From a virus: a stretch of 64,000 bases of DNA. The notes under the pieces were generated by a model. It had not been told where the DNA came from, did no database searches, and was given only the letters and a program-made list of their open reading frames with translations. Positions within the stretch are counted from its first letter, which is position 1, and each line of letters opens with the position of its first letter. The position numbers and the translations under genes are program-made. Shown here piece by piece: positions 7,695-40,540 of the stretch. The DNA is taken from positions 16,493 to 80,492 of IMG/VR virus record IMGVR_UViG_3300012209_000006. One strand, written 5' to 3'.

Positions 7695-7800
7695 GTGCAG
7701 CCATTCTGCACTGATCTGGTGGTAGGGGAGATCGCGGCTAGCTCGTTACCGAGCACAGACGACCAATCGTGTCGCACTCCCCGATCCTGGTAGCACCAGC
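7695..7800 (+). ncRNA. Candidate structured RNA (three-way junction)
   Basis: GTGCAG/CTGCAC hairpin; nested CTGGTG/CACCAG, GGGGAG/CTCCCC, GCGGC/GTCGC closing hairpins GCTCG-TTAC-CGAGC and ACGA-CCAA-TCGT. Confidence 0.4.
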
Positions 7801-16307: not shown

Positions 16308-17518
16308 TGGCCTTTCTTTATATAGACTCGTCTGGCGAAGAGCGTAACCGACACTCTTACAGTGCTGGTCTAGAGTTCGATCATTCCCCATTGAAATATT
16401 GGCTTCACCGCGTTATGGGTTGGCGCCAGAAGGATACCAACGCCGCGCTTCTGTTTGGTCGTGCCCTCGAAGACGCCATTCAGTTTTACCATGAGACGAA
16501 TCGTAGATCAGGTGAAGACGAGTTCATTCGCCTGTGGACGTTGGCGAAAGACAAGACTTTGGTTTACACGAAGAAGGAGGTGAGTTGGGAAAGTCTTCTT
16601 CGCGCGGGCCGGGAAATGATGCGCCTTTACGCGATACGGCAGCCATCTCTTCCGATTCCGATCGACACCATTTTTCAACGTGCGTTCGCCAAAGAGATCT
16701 TTCCAGGCAACGAGAAGTACGGCGGCATCGAGTTCTACGCCAAGTTAGATATGATTGCCTATGCGCCGCCAGATCATCCAATGCTCCCCAAGATGGAGTG
16801 GAAAGAATCCTACGGCTTGCTTCGGCCCGTGATCGTGGACATCAAAACGAGCGGCATCGATCTAGACGACACGTTCGGGATCGTCGGTCACGACCTGCAG
16901 CTGCGTACTTATGCTTGGGTGAAAGGCTCTTACGACGTCGCATTCCTGTGGTTTAAGAAGTGCGGGCACAAACTCAAGAAGGGCTGTAGCGTAACGCTGT
17001 TGGTTGATTCGGATCGATTCCTGGCCGGAGACGAGGCCGTGATTGCGTCCGTAGAAGGTGACAGTGCGTATCTCGTCGGCAACGACGATATGATTGAGGA
17101 AATGAGAAAGGCGCAGGGGTTCAGAGAAGGAACCAACTCTCTAGATACCACCAAGGCCGCCAAAGCCCGCGCCGCTGCGTGGCGTGAAGCCAACGCTGTG
17201 CTGGTGAAGGGTGAGAATATCACCCGGCAGCGGATGCAGTTCAGCGCTGCCCGCGTAGACCCTAAGAGCGCGGACGATGCAGGACAAATCGCGGCAGATC
17301 AGATCGTTCGTATCGTCAACGCCTGGGAAGCCAATCGGTGGACCAATACCTTCGGAGTGCGGTTCCCGCATGACGATCGTAAGGATCCTTATTTCAAAGC
17401 TTTTGTCTTGCGCGACAACGTATTTCGTGATAGTATGTTTGAGCAGAAAGCAGAAGAAGATTTGAACGATTATTTTGACGAGCCGGACGAGCTCAATGAG
17501 CCTGAGGAGGCTGAATAA
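16307..17518 (+). CDS. PD-(D/E)XK RecB/Cas4-like nuclease
   Basis: ALLFGRALEDA, KLDMI, IVDIKT, QLRTYA motifs; TAATG start. Confidence 0.8.
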   Translation: MAFLYIDSSGEERNRHSYSAGLEFDHSPLKYWLHRVMGWRQKDTNAALLFGRALEDAIQFYHETNRRSGEDEFIRLWTLAKDKTLVYTKKEVSWESLLRAGREMMRLYAIRQPSLPIPIDTIFQRAFAKEIFPGNEKYGGIEFYAKLDMIAYAPPDHPMLPKMEWKESYGLLRPVIVDIKTSGIDLDDTFGIVGHDLQLRTYAWVKGSYDVAFLWFKKCGHKLKKGCSVTLLVDSDRFLAGDEAVIASVEGDSAYLVGNDDMIEEMRKAQGFREGTNSLDTTKAAKARAAAWREANAVLVKGENITRQRMQFSAARVDPKSADDAGQIAADQIVRIVNAWEANRWTNTFGVRFPHDDRKDPYFKAFVLRDNVFRDSMFEQKAEEDLNDYFDEPDELNEPEEAE

Positions 17519-21100: not shown

Positions 21101-21642
21101 TGGATCGCGTTTGTAAAACGTGTGGCTTAGAAAAGCCTGAAGTAAGTTTAACAGCAAAGAAGCGGAGACTTTTGTGTTTTTCGTGTGAATATAAGAGCTC
21201 GGACAAAAAGAAAGCAAAAGCACGAAACAAAATCTGGAGAGACAATCAACCAGGAAGTTTTGATCTTCCAGGAAGATATGGAATAACACAGGACGACTAC
21301 TTGTATATGTTGGAAAAACAAGGAGGAGTTTGTGCTATTTGTGGTAAGAAAAATAAAGCGACTAGCCGAAGAAAAAGACTTCATGTAGATCATGATCATA
21401 AAATTGGCGGCGCGGGAATTCGTGGTTTGTTGTGTAACTTATGTAATGCATGGCTCGGGCGCATTGAAGACAACATCGAAGCCGTTTTGAGAGCTTTTGC
21501 TTACCTCAGGAGAATGCAATGCCCGTATATGAGTACCTTTGTGCATCTTGTGGAAAAAAGTTTGATAGAGTCAAATCTATCAAAATCTCTGATCGGCAGC
21601 GGGATTACGATATCTGCGCCTGCGGAAAAAGAGCTGAATTAA
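21100..21642 (+). CDS. Endonuclease VII homing endonuclease
   Basis: CKTC..CFSC, CAICG...HVDHDH...RGLLCNLCN; ATG overlaps upstream TAA. Confidence 0.88.
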   Translation: MDRVCKTCGLEKPEVSLTAKKRRLLCFSCEYKSSDKKKAKARNKIWRDNQPGSFDLPGRYGITQDDYLYMLEKQGGVCAICGKKNKATSRRKRLHVDHDHKIGGAGIRGLLCNLCNAWLGRIEDNIEAVLRAFAYLRRMQCPYMSTFVHLVEKSLIESNLSKSLIGSGITISAPAEKELN

Positions 21643-31168: not shown

Positions 31169-31731
31169 ATGTCTCTTGGATTTCCTGCTTCAAACGTCAC
31201 CGGCAATTTGCCGCAGTCGACGGTCAAGTTCTATGACAAGCAATTCGTCGAGAACTTGAAGGCTGAGACGCCTTTCGTGCGTTGCGCGGAACGGCGTGAT
31301 CTGCCTCTAAACAGCGGTAACCAGCTCGTGTTGTTCGAATACAACACGTTCGGTGCCAACACTTCACAAGCGACGGAAGGGACCCCGGGCGCAGGCATCA
31401 TCGCCTCGCTCGTTTCCAACACGTCCACGATCGGTGAGTACGCTGACTACGCTTCGTTCTCGAGTCTTGCTTTGGCAACCGCCATCGATGACACTCTTGC
31501 CAACGTCGCGAAGGAATTGTCTTACCGACTGGGCCAGTCTCTTTCGAACCTCGTTCGCTACAGCGTTGACGGCGCGTCCGCCATCGACTCGAACGTTCTC
31601 GTGCAGTTGGCAGCGGCTTCGAGCTCCAGCTTCACCTCCTTGTCCATCGGCACTATCCGCGCCGCGATTCAGTCTCTCGCCGGCCGTTCCGTGAAGCCTT
31701 TCATGGAAGCGAAAAAGCGGTTTGCCGGGAT
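31169..31731 (+). CDS. Major capsid protein, exon 1
   Basis: Follows scaffold; FYDKQFVENLK..LP..SG...IGEYADY resembles N4-gp56-like capsids; ends FAG-I at predicted 5' splice site. Confidence 0.85.
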
Positions 31732-31774
31732 TAACAATTACGCTATCGCGGCGTAACGGTCCCGGATCAACAAT

Positions 31775-31804
31775 TTGACTATATCCGTTAACCTCTGCTA
31801 TAAT
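31775..31804 (+). promoter_or_regulatory. Sigma70-type promoter inside intron 1
   Basis: TTGACT-18 bp-TATAAT, then GGAGG and ATG 31831. Confidence 0.7.
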
Positions 31805-31830
31805 GGCAGACGAGACGGAGGGAAGAACCA

Positions 31831-32349
31831 ATGAAAGTTTCTAATTGGCCGTATCTGGCCGGATTGATTGACGGCGAAGGTTGCCTTTCAATTTCTAAGC
31901 AAGTGAACAACTATCATAACAAAGGTCGTAATGATTACATTCAATACGGCTTTCGTTTAAGTATAACGAACACTAGTTTAGAGTTGATGAAATATTTGAT
32001 TGAACATTTTGGCGGCGTCTACTACACAAAGAGAACCAACAGTGATAACTGGTGGAAAACTTCGTATGAGTGGAGGCCGAAAGGTAAGAACAACAACGAA
32101 CGAGTTTTGTTGGCTGTTATTCCTTACATGGTAGTAAAACGAGAGCAAGCTAAACTGGCTTTGCTTTATGTTAGACTTCCGGAACAAGATCCTGATAGCA
32201 GAGAAAAGCTATTTAATCAAATGCGACTCCTCAATCGAAAAGGTTCACCCCCAACGACTAATACGTCAAACGTTTCTACTGAAACGAAGATAGAGTCTGA
32301 TCTCACGAGCGATCGTGAGTGTGCCCCTGTAGTGATACAGGACGCCTAA
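31831..32349 (+). CDS. Single-motif LAGLIDADG homing endonuclease
   Basis: WPYLAGLIDGEGC; AT-rich; 3' end overlaps the ribozyme core. Confidence 0.92.
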   Translation: MKVSNWPYLAGLIDGEGCLSISKQVNNYHNKGRNDYIQYGFRLSITNTSLELMKYLIEHFGGVYYTKRTNSDNWWKTSYEWRPKGKNNNERVLLAVIPYMVVKREQAKLALLYVRLPEQDPDSREKLFNQMRLLNRKGSPPTTNTSNVSTETKIESDLTSDRECAPVVIQDA

Positions 32350-32358
32350 ACACAAATA

Positions 32359-32744
32359 CGTACACCCCTTCGCATGGGGCGACGCGATTAACGACACCTC
32401 TAACAACAGCCCGATCGATGTGCTCAAGCACACCTCTGAAGGCCTGATGCGAATGGAAGAGCTGCCTTCTGCCGACCTCACGGAAGTTTTCGAACTCCCG
32501 GGAACCGGCGTTGATTTCTTCCAGACGAATCTCGTCACCCAGACGTCGAACTATAAGACGACTGGCGCGACGGCTCTCCGTACCTACATCTTCGGTCGCG
32601 ATGGCGTCATTGCTATCAACCTCGCGGGCCGCGGAGACACAGCGTACGGCGACGGGAATTACCGCGGAATCAAATGCAACGTAGTCCAGAACGCGCCAAT
32701 TAGCGTTTCGGATCCCGAAGGTTTGATCCCAGGATGGACCTCCT
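32359..32744 (+). CDS. Major capsid protein, exon 2
   Basis: Reads VHPFAWGDAINDTSNNSPIDVLKH...IPGWTS in the exon 1 frame. Confidence 0.85.
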
Positions 32745-32977
32745 TGAAAAAAGCGGCTTGACCGCTTTATGGGGTGCCTCGACGAAAGTCGAATAGCACT
32801 AATCTTCTCTGATTGACTTGAACCCTGAAACGGGAACAAGGGGCAAGCGAAAGCAGCCTGAGAGACTAAGTGAGAAGACGGCCTTAGGGCCGAAGCGATA
32901 GTCCGATCTCATGTAAATAGAAAGCATGAGACGAGAACAGAAATGATTCTCGCAGACGAAAGTCTGGTAACAGTATG
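32745..32977 (+). mobile_element. Group I intron 2 in capsid gene, ORF-less, 233 nt
   Basis: 5' exon ends in U, intron ends in G; IGS CUUUAU-GGGG pairs exon 3 AUAAAG and exon 2 UCCU; R GAGACUA, S AUAGUCC; P2, P8, P9 hairpins. Confidence 0.92.
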
Positions 32978-33060
32978 ATAAAGTCCATTTCACGGTCACC
33001 CTTCCTCCTGATCCCACACAGCGCGTCCGCCTCATCGACGCTCTGTCCGGCATCAGCTAA
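32978..33060 (+). CDS. Major capsid protein, exon 3
   Basis: Splicing gives WTS-Y-KVHFTVTLPPDPTQRVRLIDALSGIS*; exons total 1032 nt, 343 aa. Confidence 0.88.
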
Positions 33061-33084: not shown

Positions 33085-33113
33085 TTGACTTCCGAGAATC
33101 AGCGGAGTATAAT
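33085..33113 (+). promoter_or_regulatory. Sigma70-type promoter for downstream HNH gene
   Basis: TTGACT-17 bp-TATAAT. Confidence 0.8.
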
Positions 33114-33180
33114 ACTGATTAAGGGTTGTGGGGCGCGCCTCGAACGCGCCTCACTATCCGAACTCATTCGAGGTGAGTTA

Positions 33181-33798
33181 ATGATTGCACATCCTGAAAA
33201 TATACGACTAGACGTATTAAGGCTGTTGAAAGATGGCAGAGGGTCAAAAGAAATTTCAACGCGCCTAGGTCTATCAGTTGGAGCCATAGAAGATTGGGCA
33301 GCAGCGTGGCGAAAAACTGGCGAGTTGAAAGCGTTTAAACGACCAGGATCTGAATTTACGGCCGAAGCAAAACGGCTATCTAATGGATATTATAAAAGTA
33401 TTCGCAAACGCTATTTGGGCATGAAGTGGTTGGATTACATAGAAAAAAGGCATTTCGGATTTGCTAGCCCAGTAGAAGCAATACATTTTTATTTGGACGA
33501 ACAAGGATCCCCTAGAGCGTGCGCCTATTGTGGGCGCCTTCCAATGAAAGATAAAGTGTGGGGTCTAGATCGTCTGGATTCCTCGATAGGCCACGTGCCT
33601 GGGAATTTGGTTCCGTGTTGTGGAAATCATCCAGAGAACCGGTTCATGTCTTGTCAAGTTAGCAAATCAAAATTCTCTTTATACGGATGGCTAGAAACAA
33701 ACATTTCCAGATCATTAGGCCGCCCCGCTACAATCGATGAAACTCAAGCGCGTGTTAATCAAGTCGAAGCGCTGGCTCAAAAGTTTATTCGAGGGTGA
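33181..33798 (+). CDS. Free-standing HTH plus HNH endonuclease
   Basis: HTH SKEISTRLGLSVGAIEDW; CAYCG...GLDRLDSSIGHVPGNLVPCC; GAGGTG RBS before ATG 33181. Confidence 0.8.
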   Translation: MIAHPENIRLDVLRLLKDGRGSKEISTRLGLSVGAIEDWAAAWRKTGELKAFKRPGSEFTAEAKRLSNGYYKSIRKRYLGMKWLDYIEKRHFGFASPVEAIHFYLDEQGSPRACAYCGRLPMKDKVWGLDRLDSSIGHVPGNLVPCCGNHPENRFMSCQVSKSKFSLYGWLETNISRSLGRPATIDETQARVNQVEALAQKFIRG

Positions 33799-40464: not shown

Positions 40465-40540
40465 TGGAGCGTGGTCCAATCGGTAGGACGCCTCACTGTT
40501 AATGAGGACGGTGAAGGTTCGAGTCCTTCCGCTCCAGCCA
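40465..40540 (+). tRNA. trnN: tRNA-Asn(GTT)
   Basis: 76 nt; acceptor TGGAGCG/CGCTCCA plus GCCA; anticodon arm CCTCA-CTGTTAA-TGAGG; T loop GGTTCGAGTCC. Confidence 0.95.

Follow-up and report, generated by a model that had tools for sequence, protein, structure and literature searches.

Where does a group I intron end when no guanosine at its 3′ side would leave the interrupted gene in order? The question is raised by the sole major capsid gene of a phage in the IMG/VR virus record IMGVR_UViG_3300012209_000006, of which 64,000 nucleotides (positions 16,493 to 80,492 of the record, referred to as the window) were analyzed. Two group I introns interrupt this gene, and a preliminary description of the window, made from the letters alone, had proposed that intron 1 lacks the canonical terminal guanosine (omegaG) and that an essential phage gene may depend on it nevertheless. 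The comparison of related loci presented here supports this proposal: the last base of intron 1 is very probably A32358, and the phage probably relies on it. All features described below are on the plus strand and are numbered from the first letter of the window.

Organization of the split major capsid gene

The window comes from the complete virus record of a soil phage, 92,832 bp long, with direct terminal repeats and an estimated completeness of 100%. The closest named relative of the phage is Tunturiibacter phage Tunturi_3 (PP885686), a podovirus infecting an Arctic soil acidobacterium; introns are not mentioned in the paper on the Tunturi phages (PMC11924767). The annotated major head protein of Tunturi_3, gp6, has 344 amino acids and is encoded without introns downstream of the portal gene. 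It aligns to the window in three pieces: residues 1–187 to positions 31169–31729, the next 128 residues to 32360–32743, and the last 26 residues to 32980–33057. The capsid identity to gp6 is 65% in exon 1 and 68% in exon 2, and that of exon 2 to IMG/VR relatives is 92–99%. The exon 1 product matches the PHROG major head protein family phrog_1357 with an E-value of 9.4e-14. There is one copy of the capsid gene in the complete phage genome, and its homology, single copy, and location in the structural module indicate that the product is an HK97-type phage major capsid (head) protein.

Exon 1 (31169..31731) is an open reading frame (ORF) starting from ATG 31169 and ending ...GCC GGG AU, where AU are the first two bases of an Ile codon. 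Exon 2 (32359..32744) reads C GUA CAC CCC ... ACC UCC U, and exon 3 (32978..33060) reads AU AAA GUC ... AGC UAA. Intron 1 (31732..32358), with boundaries taken from intron-less alleles, is 627 nt long, begins with U, and ends in ...AAACACAAAUA. Its GC content is 41.8%, compared to 57% in the exons. All three exons and the endonuclease ORF located in intron 1 are intact. According to the sequence comparisons, intron 1 represents a mobile group I intron with a LAGLIDADG endonuclease, inserted inside the Ile codon of ...FAG-I-VHPF....

Position of the intron 1 splice junction

The frame of exon 1, if read through, stops at 31757, and the frame of exon 2 is that of GTA 32360. With HMMER, 428 capsid homologues were retrieved from 1.8 billion representative proteins, and 78 full-length sequences among them were aligned with that of Tunturi_3. 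None of the 78 has a gap in the stretch xFxG[IV][IV]HPFxxGD, and Tunturi_3 reads FCGVIHPF where the window needs FAGIVHPF. Because the homologues have no insertion or deletion (indel) there, FAG-I-VHPF is the required reading of the mature protein, and the junction has to supply a single residue. The earlier claim that exon 2 has to read xVHPF therefore agrees with both the Tunturi_3 alignment and the homologue set. Every combination of a U as the 5′ site and a G as the 3′ site that keeps the frame open was listed. Each of them changes the capsid protein by at least two residues, gained or lost; no canonical U...G pair yields the normal protein. The terminal guanosine, a hallmark of group I introns that is nearly universal but, as the mitochondrial ND5-717 intron shows (PMC8146996), not strictly so, thus appears to be missing from intron 1.

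The exact position of the junction was read from DNA. A scan of IMG/VR with exon 2 identified 26 related loci, 24 of which are intron-less at this position; together with Tunturi_3, they provide 25 intron-less junctions. All 25 contain exactly one codon between G and V/I, in DNA of the type GGG-ATC-GTN. The wobble base of this codon is C in 22 alleles, T in one, and G in two, and C is found in both ATC and GTC exon backgrounds. The closest intron-less alleles (L010, L011, L017, and L020) read GCCGGGATCGTTCACCCC, i.e., GCC GGG ATC GTT CAC CCC. Joining AT (31730–31731) to C32359 generates the closest allele with one silent difference (GTA for GTT), and the same joining at L031, a related locus that carries a diverged copy of the intron, reproduces it exactly. 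The junction sequence of the intron-less alleles indicates that the insert is T31732..A32358, positioned between AT and C. The 3′ splice site is accordingly placed at A32358^C32359 (^ marks a junction), and the last intron base (omega) is the A at 32358, which is shared with relatives. The alignment with intron-less homologues, proposed as a check in the preliminary description, thus locates the junction at AT^C. The GTA codon of the window junction, where the joined word spans GCCGGGAT^CGTACACCCC, is absent from all 25 intron-less alleles. The predicted joined sequence is GGGAUCGUA for an intron ending in A and GGGAUUGUA for an intron ending in C.

Pairing of the guide sequence with both exons

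The P1 stem (31725..31765) is formed by CCGGGAUU (31725–31732) and GGUCCCGG (31758–31765), and it is the minimum-energy structure of the 5′ region of intron 1 (z −4.1). It contains the pairing of exon CCGGGAU with the guide at 31759–31765 as originally described. Both U31731·G31759 and U31732·G31758 are wobble pairs, the former being located at the 5′ splice site, so that the P1 with a U·G wobble characteristic of group I introns is present. An extension hairpin of 7 bp is formed by 31738–31744 with 31750–31756. The P10 guide ACG (31756..31758), which had been noticed before, pairs with CGU (32359–32361) at the beginning of exon 2, directly beside the wobble base G31759. No gap interrupts the pairing of the guide ACG-G-UCCCGG (31756–31765) with the joined exons CCGGGAU·CGU, in which 7 bp of P1 and 3 bp of P10 form 10 bp including the U·G wobble. 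P1 guides matched to the respective exons were found in L031, L047, L035, L033, L036, L055, and L076, and the P10 part covaries with exon 2 in the relatives (UAUG/CAUA, AAAGG/CCUUU, AUUCU/GGAAU, UUUG/CAAA, and GGAUGAU/AUCAUCC).

A mobile clade of introns with a terminal adenosine

A search with the core motifs and the 3′ tail across IMG/VR and the JGI metagenomes retrieved the clade tail ...AAACA(C/A)AAAUA in more than 15 other contigs from many metagenomes. The same last A is present in L031, L047, L035 (and 10 loci identical to it), L077/78, L033, L036/L080, L055/L073, L057/L079, and L075/76. The tail ends in AAAUA before exons starting with C, G, or A alike, and each member has a guide that pairs continuously with its own exons once ligated.

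The introns of the clade occupy several sites in the capsid gene. Site A (xU^C, G-I/V-[IV]HPF) is that of the window and of L031/L048 (IMGVR_UViG_3300044470_000101), where a diverged copy of the intron has a 3′ end, ...CACAAAUA^CGUU, identical to that of the window; the guides ACG-G-UCCCGG (window) and ACG-G-UUCCGG (L031) pair with CCGGGAU·CGU. L047 and L035 with its 10 identical loci have introns at the same site (GU^C AUA), and their guide UAUG-G-CUCCUGC pairs with GCAGGGGU·CAUA. L077 and L078, assigned from the tail only, also carry an A-ending tail at site A. At site B (CAU^CCU, H^PF; L033), the guide AAAGG-G-UGGAUA pairs with UAUCCAU·CCUUU, and shifted readings replace the Pro of HPF. At site C (GAGU^GG, GE-W; L036 and L080), the guide AUUCU-G-CUCGCC pairs with GGCGAGU·GGAAU. 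The base after the A is a G here; its use as the last intron base creates a U×U mismatch at the cleavage site, breaks the continuous 12-bp helix, and would also give Leu where homologues carry an aromatic residue. At site D (GCU^CAA, KA^QTPF; L055/L073 and L057/L079), the guide UUUG-G-GCCUUU pairs with AAAGGCU·CAAA, a one-base shift to a C ending creates an in-frame UAA, and the only canonical U...G combinations delete 4–5 conserved residues. At site F (GGU^AUC, G^IIHPF; L075 and L076), the guide GGAUGAU-G-CCGUAA pairs with UUACGGU·AUCAUCC. There is no G nearby, and a one-base shift leaves the mRNA unchanged and the last base still A.

In the sequences compared, an A as the last base appears to be the only possible reading at two or three of the five capsid sites, and the sole reading that would fit every member combines a U at the 5′ site with a last base A at a fixed distance after the P9.1 helix. 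The pattern indicates that the A is inherited and that the clade has spread to at least five capsid sites, with the guide retuned at each. The window intron belongs to a mobile family rather than being a single case.

Ribozyme core and endonuclease of intron 1

The conservation of base pairs in the ribozyme core was counted by a script over aligned relatives. P3 (31774..31779) pairs UUUGAC with GUCAAA (32265–32270), and compensatory changes convert it to CUUGAC/GUCAAG in L031, L047, L033, and L036 and to UUAGGC/GCCUAA in L042. P4 (31784–31789 with 31814–31819) encloses P5 (31794–31800 with 31804–31810) in the energy fold of 31784..31819; P4 contains UCCGU/ACGGA in the window versus UCGGU/ACCGA in relatives. 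P6 (31825..31829) pairs GAACC with GGUUC (32242–32246), and L031 and L003 have UUCCC/GGGAA at the equivalent positions. P7 (32254..32298) consists of A32254-U32298, bulged C32255, G32256-C32297, A32257-U32296, C32258-G32295, and U32259-A32294, and it encloses P3′ and P8 (32271–32276 with 32281–32286). P8 hairpins are retained in the relatives despite their different sequences. P9 and P9.1 (32304..32341) are formed by 32304–32308 with 32313–32317 around a GCGA loop and by 32326–32331 with 32336–32341 around a GUGA loop. All five pairs of P9 vary in the relatives yet stay paired, with one exception in L044, and five of the six pairs of P9.1 occur as two to four standard pair types. Compensatory changes in P3, P4, P6, P8, P9, and P9.1 argue that the ribozyme is under selection. 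A further helix of the energy fold, UGUG/CACA (32320–23 with 32351–54), which closes the 3′ domain, was rejected because of eight non-pairs across its four pairs in relatives.

We take G32256-C32297 to be the guanosine-binding pair, by analogy to P7 of Tetrahymena and Azoarcus; the guanosine-binding G-C pair next to a bulged base expected of a group I intron would thus be in place, as the preliminary description had it. This pair, together with bulged C32255 and the rest of P7, is invariant in seven aligned relatives, both A-ending and G-ending, and the pocket carries no compensating change in the A-ending members. The R element (AACGACUA) and the S element (AGAGUCU) align to the conserved core of the Rfam RF00028 consensus. 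The AU at 32300..32301 in J7/9 was assigned as the P9.0 partner of A32356-U32357, the two bases preceding the last intron base. It is invariant in six of the seven aligned relatives, and because of this invariance there is no covariation, so that P9.0 is a putative pairing assigned from the geometry known for this element. The intron 1 core has neither P2 nor P7.1/P7.2. A second match resembling the S element, at 21564, lies in ordinary coding sequence and is a chance occurrence.

The ORF in the P6 loop (31831..32349) encodes a protein of 172 amino acids with the motif LAGLIDGEG. It matches Pfam PF00961 (LAGLIDADG_1) with 36.8 bits, above the cut-off of 23.1, and PHROG phrog_5046 with an E-value of 3e-23, identifying it as a LAGLIDADG homing endonuclease encoded inside the intron. 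Its last approximately 100 nt also encode P6′, P7, P3′, P8, P9, and P9.1, and its stop codon is 9 nt upstream of the 3′ splice site. Homologous ORFs are present in L003, L031, and L047, and the endonuclease protein used as a query against IMG/VR returned no related loci. L003 and L004 carry a related intron, and both contigs end inside P7, before the 3′ end. The site D introns of L055 and L057 are approximately 1005 nt long, and their P8 loop contains approximately 430 nt (from P3′ to J8/7) that encode the LAGLIDADG-type motif FAGMFDGEGS, indicating that the endonuclease coding sequence is in a different loop from that of the window intron.

Alternative explanations of the missing guanosine

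The competing explanation that survives best, although it is unlikely, is a shift by one base: the 5′ site would lie after U31732, which forms a wobble with G31758, and the last base would be C32359, giving GGG AUU GUA and an identical protein. The helix formed in the window, L031, L047, and L035 is then equally long (8 bp of P1 and 2 bp of P10, 10 bp in total). However, the wobble base of intron-less alleles is C, not T, in 22 of 25, clade tails end in AAAUA before C, G, or A, and the same shift meets the UAA at site D, the broken helix at site C, and the replaced Pro at site B. A C ending would lack the terminal G too. At the window site, A is preferred over C because of the wobble base of the intron-less alleles and the pattern in the clade; the preference voiced in the preliminary description is thus upheld by the AT^C alleles, the covariation of P1 and P10, and sites C and D.

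It is very unlikely that intron 1 is not productively spliced, with the A representing a recent disabling mutation in a defective phage or a dying gene, a consensus error, or an intron dependent on help. In favor of this, mutants of model introns with omega changed from G to A are severely impaired in the second step. Nevertheless, more than 15 contigs from many metagenomes and diverged copies at five sites have the A in common. The ribozyme helices, with their compensatory changes, are intact, as are the exons and the endonuclease ORFs, and the complete genome contains only one capsid gene. The DNA has also been reproduced by two independent studies: Logan contigs from their soil metagenomes match both splice sites with no differences, X3 covering 31606–31937 and 32168–32424 and X5 covering 32241–32391. 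These matches, together with the recurrence of the tail in many independent contigs, exclude at the contig level an assembly error, which had been raised as a possible objection.

Slightly less probable still is the use of an upstream G (G32340, G32341, or G32344), which adds 5–6 residues ((T)PKHKY) ahead of VHPF and puts the endonuclease stop in exon 2. Such a reading is in frame and free of stops in the window, L031, L047, and L035, and it keeps both the 5′ U and the terminal G, but a 15-nt stretch is open in one frame by chance approximately 80% of the time. No homologue among the 78, and none of the 25 close relatives, has an indel here. With CCUAAA or ACGCCU at the start of exon 2, the guide has no pairing partner and P10 cannot form, and G32340 and G32341 are paired in P9.1, a strongly covarying helix. 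The equivalents at sites B and D give stops, frameshifts, or only deletions. Splicing at G32341 or G32344, which the preliminary description had named as an outcome that would overturn its proposal, is thus disfavored at the window site and fails for related introns at other sites.

Least probable of all is G32360 as the terminal base with a cut after A31730, which is in frame and uses a G but gives FAG-I-HPF, one residue shorter, a deletion never seen in homologues, from a non-U 5′ site one base inside the P1 wobble, and G32360 is not conserved, since L047, L035, and L077 at the same site have A (CAUACACCC) and no G within 9 nt. Combined with the 5′ sites proposed earlier, G32360 shifts the frame as had been claimed, the stop following after approximately 10 codons from U31731 or approximately 29 from U31732.

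Several observations weigh against an intron ending in A32358. At this site, the P1 and P10 scores tie for U31731/A32358 and U31732/C32359, because the G that pairs with exon base C32359 can also form a wobble with the first intron U. The P7 pair is the normal G-C, which should bind A poorly, judging from the Tetrahymena omega and G264-C311 mutants; splicing may therefore be of low efficiency or require a protein. L044 (227–376, minus strand), a short relative with the core and no ORF, has a G at the aligned omega position. No pair of splice sites in L044 reconciles the frame and the wobble with P10; the intron may be decaying, or the capsid protein may contain an indel. The match of intron 1 to RF00028 reaches 25.6 bits (E-value 6.5e-4), under the gathering score of 50 that sets the membership threshold; the alignment is disrupted in its 5′ half by the ORF located in P6. 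Rfam at its gathering threshold found no intron in the window, and a search by E-value found intron 1 alone, missing intron 2. No RNA run containing the window phage was found, and in four soil metatranscriptomes only a relative with 86% identity is present. Metatranscriptome assemblies X12 and X14 contain a contig of approximately 990 nt with the capsid gene of this relative (compared with 31210–33060), joined at both intron positions. Its junction GG-TAT-CGT fits AT^C, but it is equally compatible with a spliced transcript or an intron-less allele. X14 also contains a 151-nt contig resembling part of intron 2 (32806–32850). Relatives of the window phage appear to be transcribed in soil.

Proposed selection of the 3′ splice site

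Since the genome is complete and contains a single capsid gene, the gene must work, and from this and the comparisons above we infer splicing at A32358^C32359 and its efficiency. According to standard group I chemistry, free guanosine bound in the G32256-C32297 pocket would attack after U31731, held in the wobble with G31759. Subsequently, CGU (32359–61) would pair with ACG (31756–58) to form P10, and AU (32356–57) with AU (32300–01) to form P9.0. The two pairings would set the A32358^C32359 bond in the active site, where the 3′-OH of U31731 would attack it and join the exons as GGG AUC GUA. An A is unable to form the guanosine base triple with a G-C pair, as established for Tetrahymena, and the positioning must therefore come from the flanking pairings. 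P9.0 and P10 would thus take over from guanosine recognition in fixing the last base, possibly with the help of a protein.

It is quite possible, although we put it forward tentatively, that the whole mobile clade of phage introns has given up the terminal guanosine, using the normal G pocket for step one and selecting the 3′ site purely through P9.0 and P10, while still homing to new capsid sites and with the last base flipping between A and G. If so, guanosine recognition would be dispensable for the second splicing step in a natural ribozyme of a bacterial virus. This recognition might have been lost under selection to prevent hydrolysis of the 3′ splice site, circularization, or reversal of splicing in an essential late gene; alternatively, the LAGLIDADG protein might serve as a maturase.

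Group I introns are regarded as universally having, and mechanistically requiring, a terminal guanosine. The exception proposed here concerns compact mobile phage introns with a core of approximately 230 nt, a normal pocket, several insertion sites in an essential gene, and G-ending sisters for comparison. The contributions of omega recognition and of P9.0/P10 to the choice of the 3′ splice site would thereby become testable with small RNAs. For annotation, software that demands a terminal G would misplace such splice sites and produce frameshifted capsid genes in soil phage genomes.

Introns with a terminal guanosine

Intron 2 (32745..32977) is a canonical group I intron of 233 nt without an ORF. 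Its 5′ site is after U32744 and its last base is G32977 (...UAUG), with 4 bp of P1, 7 bp of P10, and a U·G wobble; intron-less alleles read TCN-TAY-AAR. As a control within the same gene, the boundary test used for intron 1 returns a terminal G for intron 2. L074 (JABEBX010000661.1), which belongs to the clade itself and occupies yet another position in the capsid gene, has the 3′ boundary ...AAAUAUG^GUUCAUG; its P10 is 7 bp long, and a U·G wobble is present. Its tail, ending at oriented position 7799, reads ...CCUAAACACAAAUA followed by two more bases, UG, and that G is the last base. Judging from L074, the clade appears to have switched its last base between A and G. Many other phage introns in IMG/VR share the J7/9 sequence and have the tail ...AAACA(C/A)AAAUG, which was read as G-ending.

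A second case, which looks unrelated, involves a pair of closely related introns of the IA2 type (L060:5087–5158 and L066:8595–8672); they have hairpins downstream of P7 and are inserted at the same site of another gene, where exon 2 reads ...IFRHRYVYATFTRGFSKSFMAVLALMIEAILYPGSK. L060 ends AAACACAAAUA^C and L066 ends AAACACAAAUG^C. The difference may stem from an independent change of G to A or from a mistake in one contig.

Comparison with known introns

Literature searches found no phage or bacterial intron with a terminal A (omegaA), and the sole precedent found was the mitochondrial group I intron ND5-717 of sea anemones and corals, which has a natural omegaA and precise exon ligation in vivo by RNA-seq and RT-PCR (PMC8146996, PMC6545197). 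Both ND5-717 and the window intron have a last base A in an essential protein gene, in the phage known from the comparison of DNA. ND5-717 is organellar, obligatory, strictly vertically inherited, and without an endonuclease, and it has a giant P8 insert holding other genes. In contrast, the introns of the phage clade are mobile (with a LAGLIDADG gene and at least five insertion sites), compact, and located in a bacterial virus.

Passages of PMC3706429 describe group I introns with an endonuclease in the major capsid genes of mycobacteriophage LittleE and lactococcal phage Tuc2009, and report that RT-PCR and sequencing of the protein over the junction demonstrated splicing in LittleE. Term searches of that paper returned nothing unusual on the 3′ ends of the two introns. 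As in the window, an endonuclease-bearing group I intron interrupts a tailed phage's major capsid gene; the hosts differ. Natural omegaA introns and group I introns in phage capsid genes are thus known already, and the architecture described here is that of a group I intron in which the omegaG hallmark is missing.

The window intron shares the core motifs ...AACGACUA... and ...GAUAUAGUCUGAUCU..., the J7/9 sequence GAUCU, and the tail AAACA(C/A)AAAU followed by the last base with phage introns of the T4 td/nrdB type (IA2) and with L054, L056, L061, L064, L066, L069, and L072, some of which have an endonuclease ORF in a peripheral loop. However, the introns of the IA2-type set end in G and have P7.1/P7.2 hairpins, whereas those of the window clade have neither P2 nor P7.1/P7.2 and end in A. 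In the Tetrahymena ribozyme, G264-C311 was reportedly changed to A-U by Michel in 1989 and by Been and Perrotta in 1991, with altered nucleoside specificity. A-like nucleosides are then usable at omega, but the P7 pair must become A-U. Because the pair stays G-C in the phage introns, this mechanism does not explain them.

Other features of the capsid locus

In this phage group, the capsid gene is a hot spot for introns, tblastn gaps indicating approximately 10 positions near capsid residues 32, 55, 91, 112, 187, 188, 190, 271, 296, and 317. Some genomes have three to five introns in a single capsid gene (window 31169–33060; loci L010–L029, L035, L055, L057, and L074). A distant capsid homologue, P0045 (L005:580–1040), diverges after ...YWGG, one codon ahead of site A, and the divergence is followed by a LAGLIDADG-type ORF. 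It is probably another intron nearby; the contig ends before its 3′ end.

Just downstream of the capsid gene, an ORF (33085–33798) encodes a protein with an N-terminal helix-turn-helix (Pfam HTH_28, E-value 1.4e-5) and a C-terminal region resembling endonuclease VII/HNH (phrog_1035, E-value 1e-7). It is a free-standing nuclease gene adjoining the ORF-less intron 2. A tRNA gene is located at 40465–40537 (Rfam, 68.8 bits); its anticodon loop CU-GUU-AA indicates that it is probably tRNA-Asn, which is also encoded by Tunturi_3 (PMC11924767).

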